Source: Candidatus Helarchaeota archaeon (GTDB taxonomy: Archaea; Asgardarchaeota; Lokiarchaeia; Helarchaeales; RDOG01). From it: DNA of 64,000 nucleotides. Position numbers and translations under genes: made by a program. The stretch lies in assembly GCA_019058315.1 (NCBI GenBank), contig JAHPZH010000003.1, forward strand, positions 684,451 through 748,450, written 5' to 3'. Each line of letters begins with the position of its first letter. Position 1 is the first letter of the stretch. Below, one piece after another: positions 37,706-64,000 of this stretch. The notes under the pieces are model-generated. The model saw nothing but the letters and a program-made list of their open reading frames with translations, did no database searches and was not told the DNA's origin.

Positions 37706-37900
37706 ATGAACTACCATTCAGCAAGCTGAATGGTATTCGTCCCGAATTTGTCATCATACTCCTTGCGGAGTCGGAGGGACTGGCTGGTCCACGCAGCCCT
37801 TTGCCGAACATCTCAGAGACCTCTTGATGTAAGGCACTGTGTCAAAGTTCGTGAATTGTCGGGAGACTTTGCCCCGCTTTTATCCGTATTAAAGGCACCA
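37706..37900 (-). ncRNA. TnpB omegaRNA/reRNA scaffold and right end (5' boundary approximate)
   Basis: GC-rich tract after/overlapping the tnpB 3' end, ending on - in GAATACCATTCAGC-TT-GCTGAATGGTAGTTCAT, the IS200/IS605-type terminal hairpin + GTAGTTCA signature. Confidence 0.75.
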
Positions 37901-39497: not shown

Positions 39498-42400
39498 ATG
39501 AAAATTTTGGAGTTGAAAAAGATGCCCGCAATGTCGTCATACTTTAATAAATTGAAATTACATCTAGAAAGGAATGATATTGAAGAAGATAAATTATATG
39601 AACATCAGAAAAGAGCTCACAAATTACTATTTGAGGGGTTTAATTTCTCAGCATTTGTTCCAACAGGTTTCGGAAAAACGGAAGACGCCCTTGCAGCTAT
39701 TGGACATGCCTTATATTGTAATTTGGTAGCGGTTTATCTTGTTCCCCGGGTGATGCTGCTCCACCAAAAAGCCAGACTATTGAAAACCTTCTTTAAGGGG
39801 GTAGCAAGGGTTATTGTCATCCAGGGGGATTTAAAACCTCATCCCAGGGAGTTGAAGGATCCATGGGGAAAGCTCATAATCGTAGCTACATTTGAAAGCT
39901 TCAGAGCTTTCCTATTTTCAGTCCAGAAAAGGCGATATTTTGATAGAAAAACGAATATCTTCGGTTCGGTAGTTATTGACGAAGTGCACATGCTCGGGGA
40001 TAGGACCCATGGACCTTCTCTTGAGACGATGCTGTATAAGTTGCACAAGGAACATGATTCTCAGTTTTGTTTTTTGAGTGGGAGTTTTGAAAAGAGCTCT
40101 GCTGATTGGTGGTGTAAAAGGTTCAACTGTAAATTAGAATACATGTCTCACGAAAGGGATTTTTATTGCTGGAATATTTACGCCGAGCAGTCTACTTTTA
40201 AATGGAAAGATGACAAGATCAAAGAATTATGCAATGAATTTTTAGAATTTCATATATCCCACGATATTCAGGATTTAGCAGAAATACGCCCCGGAAAGAT
40301 GGTGATTTTTATCAGTACTCGCAAAAGAACGGAAATTTATTGTAATAACGTTAAAAACTCCTTAGAATCGAGCAGACCGAACTATAAGGAACATTTTAAA
40401 TGCAGTTTTATTCATGCGGGCATGACATTGGAAGAAAGAAAACAAATTTTTGATGATTTTAACAGCGATAAAGGTGTTAGATTTCTTTTTTGTACAACAG
40501 TGATTGAAGTAGGTATCGATATAAAAAACATTGAAGTGGTCTTGATCGAAGATGCCCATAAATATTCAGCCATTAAAAGAACTCAAATGATTGGGAGGAT
40601 GAGGTTAAATCATGGAGTTGTCATAAATATGATTCCTCTATTTGCTAAACGCCGTTTTAAAAGATCTATCATATATGAGAAAACATATGCAGCGAAAAAG
40701 ATCTTACCTAGTGTAAATTTTGCACTGTTTAGCTGGTATTATTGGTTTTCTGGGAGAAAAAGAATATTTTGGAGTATAGAGTATCCTTCGGAAGAAAGTG
40801 AGAAAGATAGAACGATATTTCATTATTCTGATACAGAACCCATTAGAGGATATAAATTAGAAAAGATTACTAGCCGAATCGATCTTAGACATCTGCCTGA
40901 CCTAATCCTTGAATCGTTATTTCGAACCCAAAAGAGTTTATCACAAATAGAAGATCATTTAAAGAGCATAATGGGGGAGTATGTATTAGTAGATAGAAAT
41001 AAGAAAACGATCAAAAGGAAAATTCATGAATTCGTAGGTATGAAATATATAAGGTCTACTGGAAGCAAATTTAGTCTTACATATATTGGGGAGGCTATAG
41101 TGGAGGGACACTTACCATATTTTTTTGCTGATAGGATTCTAAGAACATTTGAGGTTTTTCCCGAGCTCCCTACTCGAGAAATAAAACTGTTAATTGGGGA
41201 ACTGGTCGCGATGAAAGAAGCTAGTTCCAAGAAGATGTGGGATGTAGAAATGTTCATTAAAAATTACAGTAAAGATCCGATTATATTTACCGAAAATCTT
41301 GAAAAATATAAAATTTTAAAAGGGGATGCGGAGGTTTATCGCCGTTGTGCTGCTTGGATAGCTAGCGCTATTTACCTACTCTATCGGGGATATCAATTTC
41401 ATAATTTTGTTGAAGAAATTCGAACTAACATCGAATGTATAAATTCTGTGTTGTTTTGGGCTAAATTTCATAGAAGAAACCTGGATTACCACCATGTGGC
41501 ACTAAAAGAGCCAAGGAAATTGTCTAAAAGAATTTGTAATAGAATAAATCGAATTATTAAAACGTTTCAAAAATCTGGGGTGAGGGTGAATCTGCAAAAA
41601 CCACCCATGTGGCCCTATCAGAAATATCATGATTCTAAAGGAGCTGCCGTTTTAAACAACAAGATTATTGAAGTATTAGGAGAATCTGATGATGAGGGAC
41701 TTACTATATTTGAAATGGCTCAAAAAATTAACTCTGACCCCGACTTCAAAAACACCCTTATTACAGAGTCCAGAATTGCAGGACGGTTGAAAAACAGCCT
41801 AGCATCACGGGTTGAGCGCATCAAGGTTTATACCAATACGGGGGCACCCCATTTTAGATATTACTTAAAGGGAAACCTGCCCGAGCAAAGCGAGTTCACA
41901 TGCGCAAATTGTAATAATTTTGAAAAAGACCCGGCTAAGCGAATTTCGACAGCGGGTACAGTTTATACCTGCCAAAAATTAGAGATGGCAGTAAACGCAA
42001 ATAACCCTTCGTGTGCTCATTTTGAGCCCTATGAAAATGAATCTAGGACGTTTGCTACTTTTCCATTCAAATGGAACATTGAAGTATGCCCCAAATGTAA
42101 TGCTAGAAAAACTATTAGAGTGCCTCAACATGGAGAAGCTACCATTTGTAAGCGCTGTAACGTCCTTGTTGAGCGAACGGACAACGGTACTTTTAGAGCG
42201 ACTACAAGGCATAAAGTCTCAGAAAATATTGTCCAAACTGACGATAAGGGGATGAAATATATTGAGACCGACCCGAATAAGAGGGTAGTTTATGTTCCAA
42301 CAGACCATACATTAACAACAGAATACATTCCCGAAGGAAATTATTATATAGTCAAAGTACGCGGACTTGGAATACGTTCTTTTTTAAAACAGGTCGCTGA

Positions 42401-45400
42401 AGTGGTCTTGGGAGGGGGGACAATTGGTGAAGATGCCAAAGAACTCTTAAAAGAGCATGAAATCAAAATAACAAATTATTCGGATGAGCAGGTCCAAGAG
42501 CTTGAAAGCAGAAAAAAACGGGAAAGTAAACTTCGCAGATTGCTTCGAAGCAAGAGAGTTAAGGGAGAATTATTAATAATTGCAAGGGAGCGGACTTATG
42601 CCAAAATAATCTCAGAGATATTATGTGTTAAGAAAATGGAGGAGCTTTTTCCAAAATATAAATCCCTTATTAACAGGACCATCAAAAAACAAATGGACCA
42701 GCTAATTAAAACTTATTTGGACACGACACGGGGGTCAGCTAGGGTAAAAAACAAAAAGGAAAAAGTTCAAAGTGTAATTAAGAAATTACGTATGATAGAA
42801 GGTATTGTTGCAGAGCTCGGGTGGATAGTCCCAAGAAGAATACTTGAGGATAAATGCCCCGAACTCAGCACCTATGGAAGGGGAAAGGGAAGATATGCCC
42901 GGTCTATAGTAAAAAGTAGGGGTAAAGCCCTTGATAAATTAAATGCGGTGATAAATTATCTGTATTACATGCTCCAAATAGAAGGTAGTGAGGCGTTCTA
43001 TGAAGCGGGATTTTCTAAACTATTCCCGGGACCGGGATTATTGCATTACAGGAGAAAAAAACCGAGAAAACGGGGAAGGAAATATAAAGCATTGTACTGG
43101 GCTATGACAAAAAGAAATACGGGAGCAATTTTTGATTTTATAGACCAATATAAACCCATCATAAATTTCTATGTATTCAAATTCATCCTTGATGGGGAAT
43201 TAGATCCTAAAACGGACATTTGGCAAAAATATGATGAACGAAAAAGAAGAATATATTTCCTTTCCCCACAAGGAAGAAATAAAGTAAAAGAGTTATTTGA
43301 GCAGATTTGTTCCTCAAAATTTGTATATAAAAATAAAAAATTCACTTTTAAGACCATAATGAAAAAAGAAGCTGAAAATCTGGCCAAATATTTGGAATCA
43401 AAGCGAAAAATTTCATATACGCCATTTATTTGCTTTGAAAATGAGGATGATGCAATATGGGCAAATAGTAATTTGCGATTCATACATAATATTTTGGGAA
43501 AGGGGAAATATCGAGGTTATATATCTCAGAATTTTGAAACCAAATATAGAAAAAAGAGTAATAGAGTGCGGCGTAGAAGACGGGTTGTTTCCCCCGAACC
43601 CGAACAATTACCTCTCAACGTAGTTATCGTGCATCACACCGATTTTGATGGGTTCAAATCCGCACTTAACCTTGTGTATAAGCACCTGGGCAATAGAATA
43701 CACCTTTTCTATGCAACAAACAATAAAGGGAGAAATTACATTGAATCAGTGCTTGAAAACAAAGTTGCGAGGGTGTTACACAGGAAGCTAAAAAACATAA
43801 TTTATATTGCAGATTTTCCGCTACCCATAGAACGTGAGGACTTCCTTGTGGATTTCTTTAATAGCTTAAAGAAGAGAGGGTTGATTTTTGAGCCCTACTG
43901 GTTTGACCACCACGATACTCCTGGAGTCCAGCAAATGAGGGAAGTGATACGAGAGTTTGGTGGAGAGTTCTTCCACACGAATGATGAGGATGTCGAAACA
44001 TATGACTTAATCATGAACCATATTAAAAGTACTAGGCCTAGAATTAGAGATGTAAAGGCTTACCAGCAACTTGACATTAATTCTGTAGAGGATTTTGATG
44101 AAAACTTGAAAACCATAAACACCTCTGCTAATCTATCTAATTGGCATGAGCAGTATGACTATCATAGGCTTGAATCCCACTATAAAATAAATTTTCTTAA
44201 CTTTTTCAAGCGTATGTGTGTGCATGAAATTAATAATAAGAACTCTAAAGATAAGAAACCTAAAGAAACTAAAGGATTTAAGCGATATCAAGTTAGGATC
44301 GAAGCACTCATTAAAAACCCACAGAAATTGTTATATTATTATGATTTTGGGGAAACTGGGTACGGGTTTAAATACGCATTTTTTATGTTTAAGAGGAGTT
44401 TTCCCATACGAAAAATTAATAAGCTCATTAAAACCTTGGGAAGAAATCCAGGTCAAATAGATATCAAAATTTATTACTGGCAAGACCATACCATATCATT
44501 ACGTGCAAAAAAATCAACACAGCTTAGTTTCCAAGGATTGCTTGGTGAGAAAATGGGACACAAAAAAGCTACTGGACTACGTTCACAGAAGGTCAAATTT
44601 GTCCCTCATAAAATAGATTCCAATTATCATCTTGATTTTGAATACGGGTACTTTACAAGCATAGCGGAATTCATGGCAAGGCTCAAGATTAGTCCCCTTC
44701 AACGAGCATCGGGAACGTTTTCAAAAATAAAAACCCACACATCAGCCTATGAAACGTATCAATATGATTTTATGCCCCCTTTGGCCATGGGAGAGCCTTG
44801 CTTTCCCACATTTTTAAAGAGCTTGGATAAAATATTAAGAGGATTTAATAGCGGGTCTATAAATTTGCTATTTTGTCATAAATATGATCAATATAGGCTG
44901 ATGTATTTTGTCAAATACTTGATGTTAATGGCACAACACGAAAATGGACTGCACTCAAAAAAAGTCGTGTGCATTGATACAACTGCACACACCTTTTATC
45001 GAACGATGCTTACCTTCTTGAATAAATACAAACAGTTTACCCTGGACAATCTTAAAAATATCTTTTTCATTGACGCTTTGAATTTACGAAAGTTAAACAA
45101 AGCGGTCGACGGATTAAAGGGAATGATAGAAACCTATCAACCGAAATTGGTGGTAATAACTTCCCCATTTATCAGTATTAGAAAGAAACACCCAATAAAA
45201 AACCACTTAATACCTTACGAGGTGGAAACAACCTCTATACGGTCAACGGAGGCGGCACGATTGGTCAGGAAAATTAGAAAAATAGCAAGAAATACAGGCA
45301 TGATATTCTTACTCACACACTTCGTAAATTGGTATAAAGTATTTAAGACCAAAAACCCCTACCTCTATAACTCTATAAGTTTTGATACCTCAATCTTCTT

Positions 45401-45941
45401 GAAAAAAGATAAAGACAACATTCTCAAGCTTGATATAATCCATGTATGGCGAAAAGACACAACTTGTAAAATAAAGCTTGATATGAAGCGAAAGAGGTTA
45501 CAATTGAAAGATATATGTCATGTACCTATTTTAAAAGGGATGAAGGTAATTCGCAACAATATTACCTCGAATTACCCCGAGCTGGCTTATTGCATGGAAG
45601 GGTATAATAAATATGGGGTAAAATTCCTTATTTTTAAGTTCAATCGAGGAGTTCGTGGAGTCCATAAGTTAAGAAACAGTCTAGGGATTAACAGAAGTCT
45701 AGATATTATTATAAGGGCGGATAATAAAATAGATTTTTATAACTTTGAACCCGAATTTATTAATTTAGACGCTCTATTACATTTTGGGGGAGTCCCAAAT
45801 GAAGAAACCATGATAATCGGTGGAAAAGAACGTTTTGTACGATGGATCCGGATGTATCCAGCATTATATAAAGAATTCTTCGATTCTTTTGAAGAGTTCT
45901 TTCTGCATTTTCTCAATATAAACCTTACAAACCCAAGATAG
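39498..45941 (+). CDS. Multidomain protein: SF2 Ski2/Hel308-like helicase - wHTH - Zn fingers - Cas1 - DHH/DHHA1 - degenerate RecA/RadB-like domain
   Basis: PTGFGKT, DEVH, TTVIEVGID, QMIGR; Cas1 region ~aa 928-1310 with LRMIEG (E1101), DKLNAVINYLY, GLLH (H1183), FDFIDQYKP (D1213/D1216); HHTDFDG, IADF, WFDHH, GHKKATG; PTFLKSLDKILRG, VVCIDT, PKLVVITS. Confidence 0.85.
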   Translation: MKILELKKMPAMSSYFNKLKLHLERNDIEEDKLYEHQKRAHKLLFEGFNFSAFVPTGFGKTEDALAAIGHALYCNLVAVYLVPRVMLLHQKARLLKTFFKGVARVIVIQGDLKPHPRELKDPWGKLIIVATFESFRAFLFSVQKRRYFDRKTNIFGSVVIDEVHMLGDRTHGPSLETMLYKLHKEHDSQFCFLSGSFEKSSADWWCKRFNCKLEYMSHERDFYCWNIYAEQSTFKWKDDKIKELCNEFLEFHISHDIQDLAEIRPGKMVIFISTRKRTEIYCNNVKNSLESSRPNYKEHFKCSFIHAGMTLEERKQIFDDFNSDKGVRFLFCTTVIEVGIDIKNIEVVLIEDAHKYSAIKRTQMIGRMRLNHGVVINMIPLFAKRRFKRSIIYEKTYAAKKILPSVNFALFSWYYWFSGRKRIFWSIEYPSEESEKDRTIFHYSDTEPIRGYKLEKITSRIDLRHLPDLILESLFRTQKSLSQIEDHLKSIMGEYVLVDRNKKTIKRKIHEFVGMKYIRSTGSKFSLTYIGEAIVEGHLPYFFADRILRTFEVFPELPTREIKLLIGELVAMKEASSKKMWDVEMFIKNYSKDPIIFTENLEKYKILKGDAEVYRRCAAWIASAIYLLYRGYQFHNFVEEIRTNIECINSVLFWAKFHRRNLDYHHVALKEPRKLSKRICNRINRIIKTFQKSGVRVNLQKPPMWPYQKYHDSKGAAVLNNKIIEVLGESDDEGLTIFEMAQKINSDPDFKNTLITESRIAGRLKNSLASRVERIKVYTNTGAPHFRYYLKGNLPEQSEFTCANCNNFEKDPAKRISTAGTVYTCQKLEMAVNANNPSCAHFEPYENESRTFATFPFKWNIEVCPKCNARKTIRVPQHGEATICKRCNVLVERTDNGTFRATTRHKVSENIVQTDDKGMKYIETDPNKRVVYVPTDHTLTTEYIPEGNYYIVKVRGLGIRSFLKQVAEVVLGGGTIGEDAKELLKEHEIKITNYSDEQVQELESRKKRESKLRRLLRSKRVKGELLIIARERTYAKIISEILCVKKMEELFPKYKSLINRTIKKQMDQLIKTYLDTTRGSARVKNKKEKVQSVIKKLRMIEGIVAELGWIVPRRILEDKCPELSTYGRGKGRYARSIVKSRGKALDKLNAVINYLYYMLQIEGSEAFYEAGFSKLFPGPGLLHYRRKKPRKRGRKYKALYWAMTKRNTGAIFDFIDQYKPIINFYVFKFILDGELDPKTDIWQKYDERKRRIYFLSPQGRNKVKELFEQICSSKFVYKNKKFTFKTIMKKEAENLAKYLESKRKISYTPFICFENEDDAIWANSNLRFIHNILGKGKYRGYISQNFETKYRKKSNRVRRRRRVVSPEPEQLPLNVVIVHHTDFDGFKSALNLVYKHLGNRIHLFYATNNKGRNYIESVLENKVARVLHRKLKNIIYIADFPLPIEREDFLVDFFNSLKKRGLIFEPYWFDHHDTPGVQQMREVIREFGGEFFHTNDEDVETYDLIMNHIKSTRPRIRDVKAYQQLDINSVEDFDENLKTINTSANLSNWHEQYDYHRLESHYKINFLNFFKRMCVHEINNKNSKDKKPKETKGFKRYQVRIEALIKNPQKLLYYYDFGETGYGFKYAFFMFKRSFPIRKINKLIKTLGRNPGQIDIKIYYWQDHTISLRAKKSTQLSFQGLLGEKMGHKKATGLRSQKVKFVPHKIDSNYHLDFEYGYFTSIAEFMARLKISPLQRASGTFSKIKTHTSAYETYQYDFMPPLAMGEPCFPTFLKSLDKILRGFNSGSINLLFCHKYDQYRLMYFVKYLMLMAQHENGLHSKKVVCIDTTAHTFYRTMLTFLNKYKQFTLDNLKNIFFIDALNLRKLNKAVDGLKGMIETYQPKLVVITSPFISIRKKHPIKNHLIPYEVETTSIRSTEAARLVRKIRKIARNTGMIFLLTHFVNWYKVFKTKNPYLYNSISFDTSIFLKKDKDNILKLDIIHVWRKDTTCKIKLDMKRKRLQLKDICHVPILKGMKVIRNNITSNYPELAYCMEGYNKYGVKFLIFKFNRGVRGVHKLRNSLGINRSLDIIIRADNKIDFYNFEPEFINLDALLHFGGVPNEETMIIGGKERFVRWIRMYPALYKEFFDSFEEFFLHFLNINLTNPR

Positions 45942-50480: not shown

Positions 50481-50642
50481 ATGACATATAAAATTGAATA
50501 TTTTTATTTTGATTACAGTTTGGTCTTAACGTGTGAATGTGGTAGAGTTTCTAAGCAATTCGGTTCGAACCATACCAATACATTCAAGTGTCCGTGCGGG
50601 TTAACCTATAAAGTGTTGCCAGAAGTAGTTAAAATTAAATAA
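50481..50642 (+). CDS. 53-aa CxC..CxC Zn-ribbon microprotein, copy 1 (not in ORF track)
   Basis: MTYKIEYFYFDYSLVLTCECGRVSKQFGSNHTNTFKCPCGLTYKVLPEVVKIK; 5 of 8 changed codons versus copy 2 are synonymous. Confidence 0.7.
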   Translation: MTYKIEYFYFDYSLVLTCECGRVSKQFGSNHTNTFKCPCGLTYKVLPEVVKIK

Positions 50643-51045: not shown

Positions 51046-51207
51046 ATGACGTATAAAATTGAATATTTTTATTTTGATTACAGTTTGGTATTAACGTGTT
51101 CATGTGGTAGAGTTTCTAAGCAATTCGGTTCGAACCATACCAATACGTTCAAGTGTTCGTGCGGATTAACATTTAAAGTGTTGCCAGAAGTAGTTAAAAT
51201 TAAATAA
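51046..51207 (+). CDS. 53-aa Zn-ribbon microprotein, copy 2
   Basis: MTYKIEYFYFDYSLVLTCSCGRVSKQFGSNHTNTFKCSCGLTFKVLPEVVKIK; 51037-51207 is a direct repeat of 50472-50642. Confidence 0.7.
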   Translation: MTYKIEYFYFDYSLVLTCSCGRVSKQFGSNHTNTFKCSCGLTFKVLPEVVKIK

Positions 51208-51319: not shown

Positions 51320-51892
51320 ATGAGGGTTAGAATGGATAGATCAAAATTTTTATTCTTAACAACTAAACACGGGAGACTTTCATTCGAAAGACCACCTAAG
51401 GGAATGAAAGATGTTATAATTGCAATTACCAGAAAAAATTTAGAGATAAAATCTAAAAAAACAGGAGAAATAAAGAAAATTCCTCTCAAACAGATAGAAA
51501 TGGCAGAAAAAATAGATAGTTCAAAAACTAGCTATGTAGGAACAGCCTTGTTTGGGACACCTCCGACTCAAGATAGAAAAATATACACAAAAATAATAGC
51601 TAAAAAAAGAAAACCTTTTTATATTACATTTATAAGTGGAATGTCTGGTTGGCAAGTGGATTTACACGATGAGTTCTATTCAATTTTGAAATCTAGAATT
51701 GATAAAATAGAAAAAGAAAGCGAATTACAAAAGTTAAAAGAATTGCAAAAACCCACCAATGTTTTTTATATAAATATTCCACCACAGACAAAATTAGCAG
51801 CTTTAAAATGTCCTTCATGCCAAGCACCATTAGAATATATGCCCCCTTGTAAATGTGAGCATTGTGGAGTCATGATTGAGTTAATGAAATAA
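51320..51892 (+). CDS. PH-like domain protein with conserved C-terminal Zn-ribbon tail
   Basis: Beta-rich 'KHGR' domain, IPLKQI, terminal helix; CPSC...CEHC tail. Confidence 0.65.
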   Translation: MRVRMDRSKFLFLTTKHGRLSFERPPKGMKDVIIAITRKNLEIKSKKTGEIKKIPLKQIEMAEKIDSSKTSYVGTALFGTPPTQDRKIYTKIIAKKRKPFYITFISGMSGWQVDLHDEFYSILKSRIDKIEKESELQKLKELQKPTNVFYINIPPQTKLAALKCPSCQAPLEYMPPCKCEHCGVMIELMK

Positions 51893-52104: not shown

Positions 52105-52881
52105 TTGAAAGAATTTCTTGAACGATTGGAATGGATGAAAATAAACAAAATCAAAAATAATTCAGAAAAAAATGCACTAGTTGAGTTAAAAAATAGATAC
52201 GGATTACAAAATGAAGACTTTGAATTGGATAAAAGTGGTCATATAATAAAACTGAAAATAATCGGCAAGAAATTACATTTAATTCCAGAAATTTTAAGTG
52301 TCTTTTCCCAGTTACAAGATTTGAATCTTTCAAATAATGAAATTGTGAAAATAGAAAAGCTTGAAAATTTAACCCAATTAAAAGAATTAGACCTTAGTAA
52401 AAATCAGATAACAAAGATATCGGGTCTAGAAGACTTTACTAAGTTCCGAAAATTAGATCTTATGGGAAATCCTCTAGAGAAAGAAGATCAAGTTGTATAT
52501 AAAAAGGGAATAGCTACAGTAATTAAATATTGCCAAAAAAATAAAAGAATAGAGCTATTTAAAAAAAACTTACTTGATTATATTGCTCCTTATGATGAAA
52601 TGACATTTAAAAAAATAGCAGATCATTTCGAATTGGATGTGCTATTTGTTGAAAATGAGATTAAAAATATGTTAGAAAGTAAAAAAATTATTGGCAGATT
52701 GTTTCCTGATAAAATTATCTTAAGAGAATTAAGTCCGAAAATCGATCAGACTGTATATATAACAATTCCACCTAAAACAAAATTGACTGCCTTAAAATGT
52801 CCTTCTTGTCAAGCACCCCTAGAATACATACCTCCCTGTAAATGTGAGCATTGTGGGGTTATGATTGAATTAATGAAATAA
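52105..52881 (+). CDS. Leucine-rich repeat + PCI/wHTH protein with the same Zn-ribbon tail
   Basis: LQDLNLSNNEI, LKELDLSKNQI, LDLMGNP; PYDEMTFKKIADHF..VENEIKNMLESKKIIGRL. Confidence 0.8.
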   Translation: MKEFLERLEWMKINKIKNNSEKNALVELKNRYGLQNEDFELDKSGHIIKLKIIGKKLHLIPEILSVFSQLQDLNLSNNEIVKIEKLENLTQLKELDLSKNQITKISGLEDFTKFRKLDLMGNPLEKEDQVVYKKGIATVIKYCQKNKRIELFKKNLLDYIAPYDEMTFKKIADHFELDVLFVENEIKNMLESKKIIGRLFPDKIILRELSPKIDQTVYITIPPKTKLTALKCPSCQAPLEYIPPCKCEHCGVMIELMK

Positions 52882-52978
52882 GAGAAGAAATTTTATGTTT
52901 AATACGGTTGGTACATAAATGATCCCCGTTGGCATCCTGAACAATGTTTAGATGATGAAAATATAGTAACTACATATA

Positions 52979-53092
52979 TTAACTTGTGCATGTGGTAGAG
53001 TATCCAAGCAATTAGGTTTGAACCATACAAATACATTCAAGTGTCCGTACGGGTTAACATATAAAGTGTTGCCGGAAGTAGTTAAAATTTAA
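52979..53092 (+). pseudogene. 5'-truncated third copy of the Zn-ribbon microgene
   Basis: LTCACGRVSKQLGLNHTNTFKCPYGLTYKVLPEVVKI*; no start codon, last Cys changed to Tyr. Confidence 0.75.
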
Positions 53093-53185
53093 TAATTATA
53101 CATATTAATAATAATTGATATATTAATTCAAAGATTATTTGAGGATCTTTTTTGAGGAGAAAATTATGAAATGGAGGTTTAAACC

Positions 53186-54172
53186 ATTACCGTAAGATCC
53201 GAAGATGTATTATTTCATTGTGAGAAACATGGCAGATTTACAAAGGAAATGACCTATTTTTATAGGATGATAGATTCAAGAATCTCAATAATTAATAAAA
53301 TTATTATAATTAGCCCGAAGAAGAGAAACCTTGGTGAAGTACGGATAGATATTGATAAAATCAAAACGATTAAGATGCATAAAGATAGCTTGAAAGGACC
53401 GGAACCATATTATGAAATTATTCTTGATAATAAAGAAAAATTTTTCATTACTTTTGCCTCTACATGGGGTTCTTCTACAAAAAATCTTCATAAACAATTT
53501 AAAGAAGTATTAAACCAGAAGTTAGGTATTTCTATAAAGCAAGGAATAGATAGAACTGGACCACCTGCATTTTCTTTTAAAATGGCTCCCAGAACGAGTT
53601 TAAAAGAAGAAAAACCATCATTATTTTTTGCTGAAAAACACGGTAGATATTCCGTGCAAAGACCACCAAAAGGATTAAAGGATTCATTTATAAAAATCAG
53701 CAAAGAGAATTTAACAATAGCAATAAAGATTTCTGGAGAGAGAATTAGAGTTCCACTTATAAATATAGATGTTGCTGAAAGAATCGATAGCTCTAAAACA
53801 AGTTATGTTGGCACAGCATTATTCGGAACTCCTCCTGTTCAACAAAGGAAAATTTATACTAAGATTATAACCAAAACGGGACAATCTTTCTATGTAACAT
53901 TTATAAGCGGAATGTCGGGTTGGCAAGTAGAACTACACGATGAATTTTATGCAATTTTAAGGTCACAGCTTGATAGAATTCAAAAGGAAAAAGAATTAGA
54001 AGAACTTAAGAAGATGCAGAAACCAACCAACGTATTTTACATAAATATCCCACCACAAACAAAATTATCTGCTCTAACAGCTTTAAAATGTCCTTCATGT
54101 CAAGCACCTTTGGAATATATGCCACCCTGTAAATGTGAGCATTGCGGGGTTATGATTGAATTAATGAAATAA
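53186..54172 (+). CDS. Tandem PH-like domain protein with the same Zn-ribbon tail (likely ATT start at 53186)
   Basis: Upstream in-frame LFHCEKHGRF matches the second domain LFFAEKHGRY; GGAGGT 7 nt before ATT; second domain is a close paralogue of 51320-51892. Confidence 0.7.
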   Translation: MTVRSEDVLFHCEKHGRFTKEMTYFYRMIDSRISIINKIIIISPKKRNLGEVRIDIDKIKTIKMHKDSLKGPEPYYEIILDNKEKFFITFASTWGSSTKNLHKQFKEVLNQKLGISIKQGIDRTGPPAFSFKMAPRTSLKEEKPSLFFAEKHGRYSVQRPPKGLKDSFIKISKENLTIAIKISGERIRVPLINIDVAERIDSSKTSYVGTALFGTPPVQQRKIYTKIITKTGQSFYVTFISGMSGWQVELHDEFYAILRSQLDRIQKEKELEELKKMQKPTNVFYINIPPQTKLSALTALKCPSCQAPLEYMPPCKCEHCGVMIELMK

Positions 54173-56303: not shown

Positions 56304-56915
56304 TTGTTATTAAATCTGACTGAACTAAAAAAACCAATTGATAAAAATCAATATAAAAAAAGCGAAATTGATTTTATAAAATATTTTAAAGTGAATAGAA
56401 TTGAATCAATAATAAATCAATTTACTATACTTTTAGAAAAATCAAGTAAAGAAGAAGAGATTCAAAAATTTTTAGAAAAATATCCTATTCTAATCAATCA
56501 ATATTCCAAAGTCTATCCAAAATTTAAATTAGGTGAAAATTACATAACGGATTTTGTTATTAAAAATATACTTGACCAAGGGATTCATTATACTTTAGTT
56601 GAAATAGAAAAATCAAATATGCGAGTGTTAAATAAGGATCGGACTTTCACCTCAGATTTTAACAAGGCATATAAGCAAGTTTTGGATTGGAAAGTGTGGC
56701 TCCAAAAAAATCAAGTTTATATCCAAGGGAAATTGGAAGGTTTTGAAAGCCCATCATTCATAATTATTGGTGGGCGTTCAGAAGGTATTTCAGAAAAGGG
56801 AAAAGAAAATATTCGAGCATGGAATAGGAGCCAAAATAATATCAAATTTTATACTTATGATGATATTTTAAAAAGAGTAGAAGAATATTTAAATAACATA
56901 AAGCAATATTCGTAA
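56304..56915 (+). CDS. sduA: Shedu (SduA, DUF4263) nuclease domain protein
   Basis: EEEIQKFLEKYP, ITDFVI, LVEIEKS, AYKQVLDW, IIIGGRS, TYDDIL. Confidence 0.8.
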   Translation: MLLNLTELKKPIDKNQYKKSEIDFIKYFKVNRIESIINQFTILLEKSSKEEEIQKFLEKYPILINQYSKVYPKFKLGENYITDFVIKNILDQGIHYTLVEIEKSNMRVLNKDRTFTSDFNKAYKQVLDWKVWLQKNQVYIQGKLEGFESPSFIIIGGRSEGISEKGKENIRAWNRSQNNIKFYTYDDILKRVEEYLNNIKQYS

Positions 56916-57758: not shown

Positions 57759-58805
57759 CTATGGTAGAATCCCACCCCATTTTTGAAAAATTATTTTTTC
57801 TTTTTTTAATCGAGGTAAGTCAAATTCATTTACAGGAATATTCGATTCTCCATGTCTTTGATAATATGTTAATTTATCTGTTTTAACTGCGTATAATTGA
57901 GGCATTCTTGGAATAAAAAAGACCAATACTATTTTGCCATTTTTAAGTTTGATTTCGTTGTAAATAACACCTTTTGTAGGTTCTAGAAATGGTGAAAGGT
58001 GGTTAAAAGAATTAAGAACATGTTGAACTTCACTTGGTGAAATTCCTTTTATTTCTTTAATTTGACTATTTTCTTCAAAAATCCCAATAATTATATGCCC
58101 TCCTTTGGTATTGGCAAATGCAGATATGGTTTTTGCTAACTTTTCTCCCTTTGAAATTGATTTAAATTCAATGAAGACACGTTTATTATGGTCAAGAAAA
58201 GAACCTTCCCGAATTAACTTATTTTTTAATTTAATTATAGTATCCATAGTAACATTTTCAATAGAATCAGGTATTAAATAATTAATTTCATGGAGAGAAT
58301 ATCTACCCAATTCTGTAATTTCCCAGTAAGAATTTCTAATAATTTTTGCTAAATCTTCGAGATAAATTCCTATATCATCATAGAGAAAATCTTTAATTTT
58401 TTCATAATCTTCTTTTTTTGAATTTATTTCCTCAAAAATATCTTTATAATAAACAAAACAATGTGTTGGATTTCTTTCCCAAGCTTTATTTAATATCCTT
58501 AAGACATCATCCCCTACTTTTTTAAAGAATTGAGTTTCTAAGAATTCTTCATGGACTAATATTCCATAAGAACCGATTTGTAATTCGAAAAATTCCTCAT
58601 CAACATCTCCCTGAGCTGCTATCCAAACATAAAATCCTTTAGATTTGCCATCATATAATGCTCTTTTTAATTGAACTATTTCAATATGTTTATAATTTTT
58701 TTGAAGATAATCTAATACCTCAGTAAATTTAGATGGTTTTCCTTCTAATTTCTTATCATATAAAAACTTAATAGTTACTTTTTGTATTGCAGTAATTTCA
58801 AACAA
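57759..58805 (-). CDS. Schlafen/AlbA_2 domain protein with N-terminal wHTH-like repeats
   Basis: IEFKS...LAKTISAFANTKGGHIIIGI...YYQRHGES. Confidence 0.85.
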   Translation of the reverse strand: MFEITAIQKVTIKFLYDKKLEGKPSKFTEVLDYLQKNYKHIEIVQLKRALYDGKSKGFYVWIAAQGDVDEEFFELQIGSYGILVHEEFLETQFFKKVGDDVLRILNKAWERNPTHCFVYYKDIFEEINSKKEDYEKIKDFLYDDIGIYLEDLAKIIRNSYWEITELGRYSLHEINYLIPDSIENVTMDTIIKLKNKLIREGSFLDHNKRVFIEFKSISKGEKLAKTISAFANTKGGHIIIGIFEENSQIKEIKGISPSEVQHVLNSFNHLSPFLEPTKGVIYNEIKLKNGKIVLVFFIPRMPQLYAVKTDKLTYYQRHGESNIPVNEFDLPRLKKEKIIFQKWGGILP

Positions 58806-59377: not shown

Positions 59378-59824
59378 ATGAGTGATGACAACACATTGCC
59401 GACCTCAAGAATCCCACCTCTTGATAAAATTTTTTCTTCTAAGGGTAGGATAAGTATATTATTCACCCTCTTAGAAGCGTTAGAACTCAATATAACCGAA
59501 ATAGTAAGGAGAACCCGCTTAAACCATGCAACTGCGGTAAAACATTTGGAGAAATTAGCTGCTTATAAGGTGGTTATAGAAAAGGTATACGGAGTGGGTG
59601 GGAGTATTCGAATTTTTCGGTTAAATGTGGAAAATTCCTTTATAAAATTATTGCGATTTGTGTATCAAATCTTCAAAAAAAAGGGACTTCTGAGTGAAGA
59701 TGACATGGATAGAGTAATGCAGTTTAATATTTTCACGGAGAACCTCGGAAAAGGGGCTAATACTGATAAAGACCTGAGACATTTGATTGATCATTGGAAA
59801 GTGACGTATGGGAATTCTTCATAA
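59378..59824 (+). CDS. ArsR-like wHTH transcriptional regulator
   Basis: IFSSKGRISIL...ELNITEIVRRTRLNHATAVKHLEKL...IRIFRLN. Confidence 0.85.
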   Translation: MSDDNTLPTSRIPPLDKIFSSKGRISILFTLLEALELNITEIVRRTRLNHATAVKHLEKLAAYKVVIEKVYGVGGSIRIFRLNVENSFIKLLRFVYQIFKKKGLLSEDDMDRVMQFNIFTENLGKGANTDKDLRHLIDHWKVTYGNSS

Positions 59825-59869
59825 TCAATTACTTTATCCTCTCTTTTTTTCCTAAAAAATTCTCTTCAT

Positions 59870-60523
59870 TTATTCTTTATCGACTTTTTCTACTCTACTT
59901 TCTAAAAAAAATAATATTCCAGTTTTCATCATGGCAGCTGTTAAAGGTAATGCTGCAAGGATCCACCATAGGGAATCGATCATTGAAGGTATTTTCAAAT
60001 AATCGATAATTTTAACAATAAGGAAACTCGGCACACAAAGAACAGACCAAAAATAATAATTCATATAAGCTTTTAAAAAAAAGGGAGCAAATACCAGATT
60101 AATACAGCTAAAAGAGTAAATTAAAAAACCAGAAATTAGACCCAACTTTTGATAGTGTAAGATATTATTTTGTTTAATAAAATTAATTCCAAATAATAAA
60201 AAAAAGAAAGCTAATGAGATATATTCAAAATATTGCAGTCTTAATTGCTCAAATAATTCTGTTGGAACAGAAATAACACGTGGTCTTATAAAATTATAAA
60301 AGAGAGTATAAAAACCTAGATATAATGAAAAGAAAAAAATAAACAGAGAAAATTTTGTTTTATCTGATTTATATGATTCAATGCATGTAAATCCCACTAA
60401 AATATAGCTTCCACAAAATAAATAAGGTAAGATTACATGATCGAGACTAAAAAAGAGCCTTAAAATTTGAAGAACAGAATACATAAGTGCACCTATTCCT
60501 CCTAATATGTATAATTGTTTCAA
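59870..60523 (-). CDS. Multi-pass membrane protein
   Basis: About six hydrophobic helices. Confidence 0.65.
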   Translation of the reverse strand: MKQLYILGGIGALMYSVLQILRLFFSLDHVILPYLFCGSYILVGFTCIESYKSDKTKFSLFIFFFSLYLGFYTLFYNFIRPRVISVPTELFEQLRLQYFEYISLAFFFLLFGINFIKQNNILHYQKLGLISGFLIYSFSCINLVFAPFFLKAYMNYYFWSVLCVPSFLIVKIIDYLKIPSMIDSLWWILAALPLTAAMMKTGILFFLESRVEKVDKE

Positions 60524-60695
60524 AAGAATCCCTTTTAATCTTATAATAAAAGAACTTGATTAGTTTCTAATATTTAAGAATTCCTACTTTTTGGTAGAAA
60601 TTTCCTTAAAGATAGTTGCTTGAAATTAATTACGATTTTGTAAGTTCCATAGAAATAAATTGCCTTCATTCAGTAATATTAATAGCTAAGAACAT

Positions 60696-61205
60696 CTATA
60701 TTTTATTTCCACATTTCATACAAAATTTTGAATTAGAAGGGATTTTTTCCCCACATTGAGGGCAGAAAATACCGTCTATGGAAGTTGCCGAAATTTTTGA
60801 ATTTAAGAAATCATAGATATCTTCTAATAAATTTATGTCAAAATTAGTCCACTTACTAAATACCGTTATAAAATGTTCAGTATCGTCTGTTTCTATAATT
60901 TTAATCCAAAATGCTCCATCCCACCAAGCTTTAGTTCCCCTAGCAAGACTTTTTGCTATTTTGGAACCAGTTCCTTCTCTCCATCTTATCTTTTTTAACT
61001 CTTTAATTTGTTTAATCGGTATTATTATATCATCATATTTTTTTTTCTTCGGTAAAATTGAAAGAAGATCATCTGTAATAGTTATTACTGAATCGAGTGC
61101 TCCTGATCCACAAAAAGTAAATGAACTTTTCCTTATTTTGCCTTCTTCATTTCTATACTTTCCATGTTTTTTTATATTAAATTCTTCCGTTTTTATCCAC
61201 CTCAT
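60696..61205 (-). CDS. PH-like domain + zinc-ribbon protein
   Basis: KKHGKY, IIIPIKQIKE; FCPQCG...FCMKCG. Confidence 0.7.
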   Translation of the reverse strand: MRWIKTEEFNIKKHGKYRNEEGKIRKSSFTFCGSGALDSVITITDDLLSILPKKKKYDDIIIPIKQIKELKKIRWREGTGSKIAKSLARGTKAWWDGAFWIKIIETDDTEHFITVFSKWTNFDINLLEDIYDFLNSKISATSIDGIFCPQCGEKIPSNSKFCMKCGNKI

Positions 61206-61337
61206 TTAAAAGTTGAAAAAAAATAGTGATTAATTATTTACTCCTCTTACTCACCATTCTTTTTGATAATATATTTTTTATTATGTTTTAAGTGATATTA
61301 ATAAATTTACTTTTTTCCATAGGAGAGTCGTCTATAT

Positions 61338-61439
61338 TTTAATATCTTCACGGAGAACCTCGGAAAAGGGTATGCTACTGATGAAGACTTGAAACATTTG
61401 ATTGATCATTGGAAAGTGACGTACGGGAATTCTTCATAG
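61338..61439 (+). repeat. 102-bp direct repeat of the 3' end of the wHTH gene (59723-59824)
   Basis: FNIFTENLGKGYATDEDLKHLIDHWKVTYGNSS* versus FNIFTENLGKGANTDKDLRHLIDHWKVTYGNSS*. Confidence 0.92.
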
Positions 61440-61507
61440 TATATTGCTTTATTCTACATTTTTCTTTTATAAAAAAAGAGATTTAAAGATATGCATTGAA
61501 CCGTTTT

Positions 61508-62335
61508 TCACGGGATTAATGATTGAATTAATAACGTCAATCCCGCACCAGTATAACCTAACTGGATTGAACCACTAGCACCATATTTATAAGTTTGTAC
61601 TTGGATTAAATGTTGTCCCGGAGTGACATTATAAATAAGTTGTTGAAAGAATACAGTCATCCAATGAGGAGTCCCGCCGGGGCTGATTTGATGGATCGGC
61701 GGATCTTGGTTAATTCCATCAAGAGTAAATCTAAAACGAGTAATGGCATCCACATATCCTGGACAACTAAAACTTAAATATAGGGAAACATTATTTTTAC
61801 CTTCAATAAATATCGTATTATTCATTCCTGTTATGTTTACAAAGCTTGTGCTAGAGGAAGTAAATCCTTCATTATAATAAGTATACCAAGTTTTTATTAC
61901 ACCGGATTGTGGTGTATTATTTATCAATATCCAAACTTCATCTTTTCCGATTTTACTTGAAGCATCGGTAGCGACTATGGTAATGTTATACCAACCATTA
62001 GTAAAAGTGGTCGTATTCCATTCCAAAGGTACAGTTGTTCCTATCTCGGTACCATTTCGAAGAACTGAAACTGTATAAGCCGAAGCTGCCCATACCATCG
62101 CCCTAATGGTAACATTACCCGAATACATCTCTCCATGATCTGGGTCCAATATACCAACGACCGGATCTCCAGCTGCACCTTGGTCTCCTTCTGGAGCGGA
62201 TATAGCTGACAATATTAATATTGGGTTTATTGGTTCTGATTTTGTTGTTACTAAATATCCAAAAGTTAGTCCAAAAGCTCCTATAACAATAGCAATTATA
62301 GTAATAGCTTTTAAAGTATTTTTCTCCATTATCAA
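61508..62335 (-). CDS. Secreted/anchored Ig-like domain protein with C-terminal beta-sandwich
   Basis: N-terminal TM; short Gly-X-Y stretch; WNTTTFTNGWYNITIVATD bacterial-Ig motif. Confidence 0.7.
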   Translation of the reverse strand: MIMEKNTLKAITIIAIVIGAFGLTFGYLVTTKSEPINPILILSAISAPEGDQGAAGDPVVGILDPDHGEMYSGNVTIRAMVWAASAYTVSVLRNGTEIGTTVPLEWNTTTFTNGWYNITIVATDASSKIGKDEVWILINNTPQSGVIKTWYTYYNEGFTSSSTSFVNITGMNNTIFIEGKNNVSLYLSFSCPGYVDAITRFRFTLDGINQDPPIHQISPGGTPHWMTVFFQQLIYNVTPGQHLIQVQTYKYGASGSIQLGYTGAGLTLLIQSLIP

Positions 62336-62763
62336 TCCTCCAATTTTAAATGAAAATATGTTTTTTATTATGGTCTGAATGGTATTAATAATTTTACTTT
62401 TTTCTATAGTCGGAGTAGTCTGAAAATAAAAGAGATAGAGTAATTTGGATGATAATATTTTACCTTCATTCGGTAATTTTTATTCTTTGGAAGGAAAAAT
62501 TGTAACTGGCTAACCAAACTATTTTACTGACAAAAATAATCTATATCTGTGAGTTTTTAGTCAAATAATTTTATTAATTGACTAATTTAACTGTACAATA
62601 TCGAATTTTACATTTATTGCGACAAAAAATTGATCATAGTAGTTCCAAGTCAACATAATCAGGTGATGAATCAACGTCCTATGTTACAAGGAAACAATAC
62701 CAACTGCCCAAGTTACAAGAAGTCTTTGATTTTGACACGTTAATCACTGACGGTCTGGAAGCA

Positions 62764-64000
62764 TTGAAACGTGTATGGGGAATGGGGAGGGTTAATATAC
62801 AATTTAAGTTATATTTCAAATATCCCAATCTGAATTATGTCAATATCGGCAGAGCGGAATGGAAAATTAGGGCAAAAGAACTATCCGAGAAAATTAATAA
62901 TGGGTTTTCGAGGGTTGAACAGTTTTATTCCGCATTTGAAAAAAAATTCCTTGCACTTAATTTTTACGAATTTGGCTACCCAATGATATGTACCCTTGCG
63001 AAAGAAAAGGACTATTGGGAAAAGGAAATCACTTTTTCAATTCCCCATCTCACTCCATCCTTGCTGGTCTCCATGAACATATTTTTACAGCACATTCTTG
63101 GGACACATATTTTTAATTACGCATATAAGGTCAGATTTACCATTCAAATTACTCAAGTGCAAGATGGAAAACTGCATACCATTACACTATTTGAGGAATA
63201 CGCCAAAATAGTTAAGTTTTATGGATATTTGAGCTTAAAAAATAAACCTAAATTATTAGAATATTATGAAAAAGTTGCTCCGTTTATGGTTACATCTTGT
63301 CAAGGGTACCCCATTACAGCAGACCAACTCAAACGTGGCGAAACGCTATTCAGACGGCATATCCGAAAAGATGGTAAGAAGGATTCGATTTCGATCAATG
63401 GTCCTGATGAAATTGTAAACTATATTAAGGAAGAGGATTTTGGGGGATTTTATCATTCTGTTCAAAAAAGCGATAAAACTGTCGGCATGGGGGTAATTGA
63501 CCTCGATCCGAAGCGGGGAATTAAGCAAGTACTGGGTCAGAAAGTGCTGTGGAAGATATTATTCAAATTTGCTGGGGATCTGGTGAAAAATGCATCCAGT
63601 CACGGTCTTGAGGGGCTTGCTATAAAATTTAGTGGGGAAAAGGCATCCATTTGTATTTTTCGCTGGCGGATGATGCACTAGCTGGTGAACAGATCGATTA
63701 TGATTCCTATATTATTGCACTACGGATTGTGGAGGATGAACTTGAGGGAAAAAAAGCTACGGCAAGTTTTTTGAATCCCTTTAAAGCATTAAAATTTTCA
63801 TTACAGGCCCTTGCTCTTGATACTATGTTTGGATATTGTAGGTGGGTGAAAGAAACATGGCTGAAAAAGTGCAATGACATACGTGAGAAAGCTCATTTAT
63901 TCACATTAACGAATGATAATGAAAATTATTTCAAAATATTCATTGATTTTGCCTCTAATATGCCTCAAGGAGTCTTTCGGACTATCTTAAGTGTCCATGC
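62764..64000 (+). CDS. Archaeo-eukaryotic primase (AEP)/LigD-polymerase-like protein, -1 frameshift near 63634-63642, runs off window
   Basis: Motif I IDLDP; KFSG then (-1 frame) KGIHLYF = motif II; later KIFIDF..N...FRTILSVH = motif III region; -1 frame open to 64000. Confidence 0.8.

Follow-up and report, generated by a model that had tools for sequence, protein, structure and literature searches.

A repeated gene 3' end as a candidate linker in an array of exchangeable gene slots in a Helarchaeota archaeon

Why should the last 102 bp of a gene, down to its stop codon, be found a second time beyond two genes of the opposite strand? The question is raised by a locus in a 64,000-nt stretch of a Candidatus Helarchaeota archaeon genome (hereafter the window), where a preliminary description had read the arrangement as an insertion at a gene 3' end, flanked by a duplication of its target. 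Asgard archaea have large genomes with abundant, poorly characterised mobile DNA, and, to our knowledge, the gain and shuffling of cargo by their mobile elements is largely not understood.

The duplicated gene tail

The gene concerned (59378-59824, plus strand) is an open reading frame of 148 aa with a weak HTH_5 match and a Csa3-like winged-helix (wHTH) match. Its last 34 codons and stop (59723-59824) recur at 61338-61439, 92 of the 102 positions being identical (90.2%) and the longest exact run between the copies measuring 30 nt. With the part beyond the stop included, the repeat covers 137 nt (59723-59859 versus 61338-61474; 85% identity, spacing 1615; E = 5e-39 by BLAST of the 3.9-kb region against itself), identity falling to about 65% across the ~37 nt past the stop. 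The stop codon stands in the same register in both copies (TAA in the first, TAG in the second) and the frame of the second copy is open through its 34 codons; because an in-frame TAG lies ahead of this copy at 61320-61322 and it lacks a start codon, it is an orphan fragment. Two minus-strand open reading frames (59870-60523 and 60696-61205) lie between the copies. These observations bear out the preliminary description, which had taken the repeat for a single pair; two more copies were found on contig C10, one of them also an orphan (C10:197875-198009) and the other a 57-nt piece (C10:194958-195014). The four copies are labelled here W0 (59723-59864), W1 (61338-61491), V1 (C10:197875-198009) and Vs (C10:194958-195014).

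Residues 1 to ~105 of the wHTH protein match an archaeal wHTH family of ~100 aa whose members (98-111 aa) end near residue 105, and residues ~106-148 form an extension that carries the repeated tail. Comparison of the tail with this family gives a hint that it could be what is left of the genuine C-terminus of a member gene: shuffling against one paralogue gave p 0.008, and hhalign gave P 0.025 at the C-terminal helix of the family. The tail was not found by DNA search in 40 related genomes, and among species-representative genomes the wHTH protein had only ~100-aa homologues without the tail. A search of 5.8 billion proteins returned the protein itself and one distant 93-aa match only, and exact-pattern scans of metagenome and genome collections gave no relative of the tail pattern outside the source genome, and hence no empty site for comparison.

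Slots and linkers in two arrays

On the 3' side of the wHTH gene, four single-gene slots are set apart by three short types of linker, which we call T, X and D2. The first T linker, W0 (plus strand), consists of the last 102 nt of the gene and ~40 nt of post-stop sequence with a T-run, and the stop codon of the slot-1 gene (59870-60523, minus strand) lies 5 nt from its end; this open reading frame encodes a 217-aa membrane protein, hydrophobic by eye, with no Pfam or family match. It is followed by a diverged first copy of X (60614-60683, plus strand), which has 67% identity both with 62414-62483 (E 2e-5) and, on a further contig, with C7:665-737 (E 1.5e-5), and by the slot-2 gene (60696-61205, minus strand), which encodes a 169-aa protein with a C-terminal zinc ribbon (Pfam Zn_Ribbon_1). 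Next come a D2 copy of ~60 nt (61264-61329, plus strand) and the T copy W1 (plus strand), made up of the orphan tail with its TAG end and ~52 nt; the conserved core of D2 reads TATTAATAA..TTTTTT..ATAG, then GAGAGTC. The slot-3 gene (61508-62335, minus strand), an open reading frame with a domain match, encodes 275 aa, which include a TM segment at the N-terminus and an Ig-like domain of the Big_7 family. Beyond it lie a second D2 copy (62351-62409, plus strand; 85% identical to 61264-61322), a second copy of X joined to a conserved AEP gene leader (62414-62763, plus strand; 62342-62933 is 88-89% identical to C7:597-1186) and, in slot 4, the 5' part of an AEP-type primase-polymerase gene (62764-63681, plus strand; weak LigD_Prim-Pol match) that runs past the window.

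D2 stands before most T and X copies, and all six of its copies in the 5.8-Mb genome lie in two arrays (nhmmer E 1e-11 to 4e-16; next match E 0.6). The four T copies are likewise confined to these arrays, and a genome-wide repeat or MITE was rejected as an identity for the tail or D2. A lone match to the D2 core outside the genome (L029) had no flanking similarity and was therefore ascribed to chance. X aligned best with the wHTH gene at the site expected of a third, older tail copy (59695-59734); its likeness to the wHTH 3' region is not significant (E of 0.05 for a search space of 1 kb; z only 2-3.8) and this assignment was not accepted, so that a common origin of all linkers is no more than a possibility. 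No known RNA family was found in the linkers, and the three window cargo genes had no PADLOC match.

The array is present twice in the genome, in the window (W) and at the end of C10 and start of C7 (V), so that the comparison concerns two arrays in one MAG (94% complete, 6.6% contamination). We infer the join of C10 to C7 from synteny and from shared TPR repeats, the C7 start being the sole contig end that shares those of the C10 end; no overlapping sequence was found between the two ends. The window segment that runs from the Zn-ribbon gene through D2 and the orphan tail to 52 nt beyond it (60697-61491) matches C10:197226-198023 at 94.8%, with the wHTH gene absent nearby and the homology ceasing at the end of W1 (61491). 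Upstream, 59808-59864 within W0 is 92% identical to C10:194958-195014, and downstream 62374-62933 matches C7:628-1186 at 89%; between the C10 and C7 matches there is exactly one gene per locus. The short T copy on C10 is preceded by D2 and followed by an M6 peptidase gene, after which come a D2 half with X and, next, the Zn-ribbon gene; both arrays therefore have their linkers in the order T-X-T-X.

Two slots differ in content between the arrays. Slot 1 holds the membrane protein gene in W and the unrelated M6 peptidase gene in V, and slot 3 holds the Big_7 gene on the minus strand in W and an unrelated NTPase-TPR gene on the plus strand in V, whose cargo genes lie on both strands. The linkers shared by the arrays are 85-95% identical, and the homology breakpoints (59864/5, 60696/7, 61491/2 and 62373/4) sit at linker edges in both variable slots. 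The AEP gene on C7 comprises its first 57 codons only, and the contig of the second array has no Cas1 gene. The two genes between the window tails had been taken for one inserted unit; the occurrence of the Zn-ribbon gene, D2 and T on C10 without the other gene argues against this, and the X linker at 60614-60683 separates the two.

Age of the duplication and exchange of cargo

Tails at the same position in the two arrays (W0-Vs, 92%; W1-V1, 91%) are more alike than tails at different positions (87-90% in the coding part, 57-65% past the stop), and the T duplication is therefore older than the split of the arrays. The idea of a fresh target duplication, made when the present genes were inserted, consequently fails, the window copies themselves differing by 10% in the coding part and by 35% after the stop. 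Nor did the replacement of cargo between fixed linkers involve new duplications: Big_7 versus NTPase-TPR and membrane protein versus M6 peptidase are differences that came with no new tail. The Zn-ribbon proteins of the two loci are identical at 168 of 169 residues, and their genes show 1 mismatch in ~508 nt (60707-61214) next to a linker that is ~8% diverged, which indicates that this gene has probably undergone recent conversion between the window and C10 loci.

Given that different genes stand between the same linkers, the repeat is best read as a mark of gene swapping by recombination, as opposed to a single fresh insertion. We accordingly favour, at a probability of roughly 0.55, the reading that the 102-bp repeat is a linker in an array of swappable slots whose cargo is exchanged by recombination at the linkers. 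The T duplication would have arisen by tandem duplication of a two-slot unit or in an early Campbell-type event, and slot genes would afterwards have been swapped by recombination with endpoints at or inside the linkers. Sister arrays or elements probably exchanged genes by homologous recombination and gene conversion, for which the linkers, 60-230 nt long, would have been the anchors. Two genes that stand distally in two sister elements with 87% conservation, one of the Rad51 family and one SSB-like with an OB fold, may assist the exchange. Both homologous recombination as the means of exchange and the way in which wholly new genes first enter the slots are matters that we infer: homologous recombination swaps genes between arrays that share linkers, and does not explain the first arrival of unrelated genes. 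The exchange endpoints lie a few nt (2-18) past stop codons and, ahead of start codons, within less than about 90 nt; random crossovers would be less tidy, and a dedicated mechanism could be at work.

Gene tails are also repeated elsewhere. The tail of the AEP gene, just past the window (L019:690-838), has an orphan copy 5.7 kb downstream (L019:6370-6518), with a 422-aa gene and a PRTase-CE gene between the two; a sister element at C11:1-16000 has the orphan only, and the DNA between such gene tails differs among sister copies. At 51-54 kb, a common 126-nt tail closes three intact genes that have different bodies. A uniform, coarse genome-wide screen returned ~7 pairs of a gene tail and a downstream orphan in 5.8 Mb, and only one of them, the wHTH pair, lies near a Cas1-fusion gene; hence there is no clear enrichment of gene-end repeats in Cas1-fusion elements of the kind that had been anticipated. 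When three more regions associated with Cas1 were checked by hand, along with two sister copies, no other gene-tail pair came to light, only a repeated small-ORF-like segment on C1.

Of the alternatives, the one nearest to the original proposal is possible, with clearly lower odds than exchange at linkers. It holds that circular cassettes of cargo, D2 and T were each taken up through one crossover within the wHTH tail, whether catalysed by some site-specific enzyme or based on homology over ~100 nt, so that the gene was rebuilt each time and the older tail pushed outward, new cassettes adjoining the intact gene in integron-like fashion. The att-type geometry does hold, in that a tail including the stop is duplicated around cargo with the wHTH gene intact and the AEP gene is arranged likewise; it is the single fresh insertion that does not. 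The 30-nt exact core inside the repeat, the cargo trimmed tightly around its open reading frames and the constant attachment of D2 to orphan T copies on their 5' side, as for a cassette-borne site, are all consistent with such capture, and the short C10 copy, which groups with the gene-attached tail and has another D2-T junction, could represent a second independent joining. Against this, a Pfam search of open reading frames of at least 100 aa across 37.8-82 kb, together with the two insert genes, found no tyrosine or serine recombinase or integrase in or beside the insert or across the region. The linkers show no excess secondary structure, D2+T and D2+X folding no better than shuffled sequence in a search for attC-like hairpins (z 0.15, 0.41). 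Cargo was replaced without new tails after a duplication that predates the split of the arrays, and the stretch between W0 and W1 is composite, with an X linker inside.

A more doubtful explanation is that the tails are passive relics, left as fragments by one old local tandem duplication and subsequent deletions, the cargo differences being illegitimate insertions or deletions and the linkers having no part in recombination; they would be kept as terminators (the post-stop T-run) or promoters (the TATA-like D2 core). T does end in a T-run of the sort usual in archaeal terminators, D2 includes its 5' half only beside a minus-strand neighbouring gene, as for a promoter module, and the similar tail-plus-orphan pairs elsewhere in the genome amount to ~1 per Mb. 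Such relics do not account well for variable-slot breakpoints that coincide with linker edges, for a recent conversion tract bounded by linkers, or for tails that survive without the gene body, as they do in V and, at the C11 start, in the sister element.

Still more tentative is the proposal that T, D2 and X serve as the sites of recombination for a gene-capture process of Asgard mobile elements that resembles integron capture but needs no integrase; it would take single ORF-trimmed genes in either orientation into tandem slots and be driven perhaps by the Rad51-like/SSB pair or by the Cas1-helicase fusion. A long target-site duplication, made by the Cas1-helicase fusion (39498-45941) or TnpB (gene at 37813-39216) through staggered cuts ~100-140 nt apart and fill-in, is very improbable: both genes lie 14-20 kb upstream and direct duplications are made by Cas1 integrases, but the characterised casposon duplication is of 15 bp beside TIRs (PMC5137440), short, identical when made and abutting them, whereas the tail repeat spans 102-137 nt at 85-90% identity with no TIRs at its inner edges (the lone inverted pair is a 20-nt T/A run) and is shared by a second locus on a contig without a Cas1 gene.

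The locus is a clean, internally controlled case, with one scaffold in two arrays, two slots that differ and a third freshly converted; the shared scaffold, the differing slots and the converted gene together argue that gene-sized cassettes are exchanged at fixed short sequences, some of which are gene-end relics. A long 'duplication' around genes thus need not mean an insertion event. Should the linkers turn out to be active in recombination, they would constitute an archaeal counterpart of integron-like cassette systems that is free of an integrase; if they are inactive, gene-tail relics would still be a useful marker pattern for cargo hotspots in such elements.

Comparison with known systems

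Aloposons, which are giant-gene, tRNA-targeting elements (PMC8813620), were ruled out as relatives. A published Asgard unit, the aCas1-TnpB locus with flanking repeats (Altae-Tran et al. 2023, PMC10691335), is of the kind represented by the aCas1-helicase/TnpB pair 14 kb upstream of the window array; in the part of that account considered here there is no mention of linkers derived from gene tails or of slots for cassettes. Unlike these elements, the second array lies on a contig that carries no aCas1 gene.

In integrons, IntI acts with attI and a common promoter, and the attC sites are imperfect inverted repeats that fold as single-strand hairpins, with cassettes in one orientation. The present arrays resemble them in their tandem single-gene cassettes, trimmed near the open reading frame and each followed by a recurring site. 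They differ in having no IntI-like gene, linkers without attC-type hairpins and cassettes in both orientations, most of which seem to carry their own ~85-nt upstream region. Elements bounded by attL and attR insert into a tRNA or protein gene at its 3' end, which they restore, and encode an integrase in or beside the insert. They share with the array an intact gene and a copy of its 3' end beyond the inserted DNA, but here there is no integrase, the copies have diverged by 10-35% with an exact core of at most 30 nt, the insert is composite and the tail was duplicated before the two arrays diverged.

An Rhs/CDI orphan retains a conserved piece of the core, behind which come a different toxin tip and an immunity gene (Koskiniemi et al. 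2014, PMC3967940). The likeness lies in fragments of a main gene standing downstream of it with other genes between, and in the homology that these provide for recombination altering expression of the locus. The wHTH orphan, in contrast, is the extreme 3' end (34 codons and the same stop), with no start and no alternative coding part, and the variable parts of the array are whole independent genes in either orientation.

Lambdoid phages undergo mosaic (modular) exchange at short conserved boundaries, and P2/P4-like elements have cargo hotspots between conserved flanks. The features of mosaic exchange are seen here, with conserved boundaries around unrelated segments, breakpoints at those boundaries and, in the apparent conversion of the Zn-ribbon gene, ongoing recombination. 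As in those systems, unrelated genes occupy one position between short conserved sequences of sister elements, and homologous recombination in the flanks would explain the exchange with no need for a dedicated integrase. What distinguishes the Helarchaeota arrays is that the anchors are relics of gene 3' ends, stop codon included, together with a 60-nt element, and that they stand in tandem within one array, giving several single-gene slots in a row in an Asgard host.

A repeated gene tail and its linkers

A repeat search of the window recovered a direct repeat at 59723-59859 and 61338-61474 (137 nt, 85% identity; E = 5e-39 when the local 3.9 kb was compared with itself by BLAST), confirming the 102-bp gene-end repeat around two opposite-strand genes reported in the preliminary description. 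The first copy forms the end of a 148-aa ORF (59378-59824) with a weak ArsR/Csa3-like winged helix, the wHTH gene. The two copies agree at 92 of the 102 positions that end with the stop codon (longest exact run, 30 nt), and over the ~37 nt past it identity falls to 65%. In the second copy the frame is intact and the stop, TAG in place of TAA, falls at the equivalent position; with an in-frame TAG ahead of it (61320-61322) and no start codon, this copy is an orphan. Between the two are a pair of ORFs on the minus strand, one of 217 aa (59870-60523) with no family match and one of 169 aa (60696-61205) with a C-terminal zinc ribbon.

The wHTH homologues are ~100 aa long and end close to residue 105; the tail thus belongs to an extension of ~45 aa that only this gene has. 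It weakly resembles the C-terminal helix of the wHTH family (p 0.008; hhalign P 0.025), a hint that the tail linker, T, may derive from the end of a different wHTH gene of the family. In a Thermoprotei MAG (L022:4760-6291) and a Heimdallarchaeota MAG (L024:4761-6261), the ~100-aa homologue comes straight after a gene of ~406-408 aa and overlaps its end, that gene being of Orc1/Cdc6 length and, judged by eye, Orc1/Cdc6 look; the window wHTH gene, which adjoins an AEP primase gene, may thus belong to a replication module. Just upstream of the wHTH gene lie a Shedu SduA_C nuclease-domain gene (56304-56915) and a Schlafen/AlbA_2 gene (57759-58805), defence-type cargo of the same region.

The assembly (5.8 Mb in 12 contigs, here C1, C2 and so on; ~30% GC), in which the window occupies C11:684451-748450, has two more copies of the tail, both detached from any wHTH gene: one spans C10:197875-198009, the other is a 57-nt fragment (C10:194958-195014). 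The stretch 60697-61491 matches C10:197226-198023 at 94.8%, covering the zinc-ribbon gene with the region upstream of it, the orphan tail and a further 52 nt; hence the orphan tail travels with the zinc-ribbon gene rather than with the proposed two-gene insert. Immediately 5' of the orphan tail is a 59-nt element, D2 (61264-61322), with a second window copy at 62351-62409 (85% identity). A profile search of the whole genome returned six D2 copies (next match, E = 0.6), all at gene junctions of the two arrays described below and each followed by either T or a third linker, X. The X copies after D2 lie at 62414-62483, C7:665-737 and C10:197181-197213; a diverged X (67%, E 2e-5) separates the two insert genes at 60614-60683. 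With four tail and six D2 copies in whole-genome searches, a dispersed repeat was rejected.

Two colinear arrays

The window array, W, has a counterpart, V, at the end of C10 and the start of C7. C10 ends within an NTPase-TPR gene and C7 starts with the same 102-nt TPR repeats, being the only contig end to share them; C10 and C7 very probably adjoin one another. The break falls in a long gene of near-identical repeats (C10:198111-200306, C7:1-609), and C7:628-1186 matches 62374-62933 at 89%. Reading C10 into C7, both arrays have the linker order T-X-T-X, with single-gene slots between linkers. Upstream are the wHTH gene in W and, in V, a minus-strand 168-aa Zn-ribbon/TM gene with D2. T in W and a short T in V precede slot 1, which holds a 217-aa membrane protein (minus strand) in W and an M6 peptidase (plus) in V. 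X in W and half a D2 plus X in V lead to slot 2, with a minus-strand 169-aa Zn-ribbon protein in both. D2 plus T in both arrays introduce slot 3, a Big_7 protein (minus) in W and the NTPase-TPR (plus) in V. D2 plus X in W, and half a D2 plus X in V, precede slot 4, occupied by the AEP primase-polymerase (plus) in W and a 57-codon AEP remnant in V. The arrays share a scaffold of positionally orthologous linkers on which cargo has been replaced: the genes in slots 1 and 3 are unrelated between W and V, and slot 2 has the same gene in both. Homology breaks at linker edges (59864/5, 60696/7, 61491/2 and 62373/4), 2-18 nt past stop codons and within ~90 nt ahead of start codons.

The relative ages of the tails were compared over the region common to all four copies. 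The gene-attached W copy and the short V piece, both at array position 1, are 92% identical; the position-3 orphans show 91% identity in their coding part and have four differences from the gene-attached copy in common; across positions, coding identity is 87-90% and post-stop identity 57-65%. The copies therefore group by position and not by locus, and the T duplication thus predates the W/V split; after that split the genes between linkers were exchanged for others with no further duplication. The zinc-ribbon gene carries 1 mismatch in ~508 nt (60707-61214 against C10:197236-197744), while its adjoining linker is ~8% diverged, which points to recent gene conversion between W and V and with it to ongoing recombination. 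Flanks of the two loci are 5-10% diverged, and we estimate ~8 silent differences in the gene had its synonymous sites diverged like the linker. The near-identical tract almost coincides with the ORF.

Tail repeats elsewhere

Just beyond the window, the last ~150 nt of the AEP gene (L019:690-838; window coordinates 64690-64838) recur at L019:6370-6518 (70370-70518) with 73-80% identity and 5.7 kb spacing, around genes of 422 aa and 1203 aa, the latter a PRTase-CE. A third AEP tail, without an AEP body, lies in a sister element at C11:10400-10592, and an aligned stop codon terminates all three. At 51-54 kb one 3' tail is reused by different genes: a 126-nt zinc-ribbon tail (~42 aa; 51767-51892, 52756-52881 and 54047-54172; 74-84% DNA identity) closes three consecutive, intact genes of 190, 258 and 307 aa with different bodies, the middle one with LRR and PCI-like domains. 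A 53-aa Cys-rich microgene is repeated at 50481-50642 and 51046-51207 (95% identity), partially at 52925-53095, and again in sister elements on C1, C2 and C11. On C2 (1-14.6 kb), C11 (1-11 kb) and C1 (20-27 kb) lie sister copies of the cargo region, which have short segments of 87-96% identity in common, interrupted by unrelated DNA; the whole wHTH-to-AEP block is missing from the C2 copy.

A uniform genome screen (direct repeats of at least 70 nt and at least 78% within 12 kb, pairing an ORF tail with a downstream orphan) gave ~7 cases in 5.8 Mb, only the present one near a Cas1 fusion, so that the suggested enrichment near such fusions was not shown. Pairs far from any Cas1 fusion (C5:683086-683537/685667-686119, C1:342816-342919/345968-346071 and C5:8526-8646/9644-9764) reach 453 nt at 93%; the signature is not confined to these elements. 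A 68-nt repeat (82%) at C1:388329-388396 and 393246-393313, 4.9 kb apart, surrounds four minus-strand genes downstream of a more distant Cas1-helicase gene; its sequence resembles the final part of a basic microprotein of ~30 aa and closes in TAA.

Mechanism of slot turnover

We favour, at a probability of roughly 0.55, a reading in which T, X and D2 are an inherited scaffold of linkers and sister arrays would swap slot genes through homologous recombination or gene conversion, for which the linkers serve as anchors. The data show the scaffold itself, the positional orthology of its linkers, the replacement of cargo and a recent conversion tract; which enzymes act, and by what route new genes first enter, is what we infer here. 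At the distal end of the element an SSB-like OB-fold gene adjoins a Rad51/RadA-family gene (L019:11741-13494, window ~75741-77494; L018:13127-14796), a pair 87% conserved in the C2 copy, and the element may therefore own a recombination module. The Cas1-helicase/TnpB pair upstream belongs to the aCas1-TnpB type already published for Asgard archaea; the V contig carries no Cas1 gene.

Campbell/att-type capture of circular cargo-D2-T cassettes at a gene tail is a possible, distinctly less probable route: D2 plus T do adjoin as such cassettes would have it. A recognisable att system was rejected: the ORFs between 37.8 and 82 kb include neither a tyrosine nor a serine recombinase. That the linkers are passive relics with promoter or terminator function only seems unlikely. 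Integron-like sites were also rejected, as D2+T and D2+X showed no excess folding over shuffled sequence (z 0.15 and 0.41). No Rfam family matched in the region. A long duplication made by a transposase is very improbable: target-site duplication was ruled out, no terminal inverted repeats being found at the inner edges of the repeat copies and the characterised Cas1-type duplication being 15 bp (PMC5137440). Of the original proposal, insertion with a long target duplication, the geometry stands, its age and inserted unit do not, and its mechanism probably does not. The locus is a case of modular cassette exchange that differs from the known forms, and its interest would become high should the linkers prove to be dedicated recombination sites.
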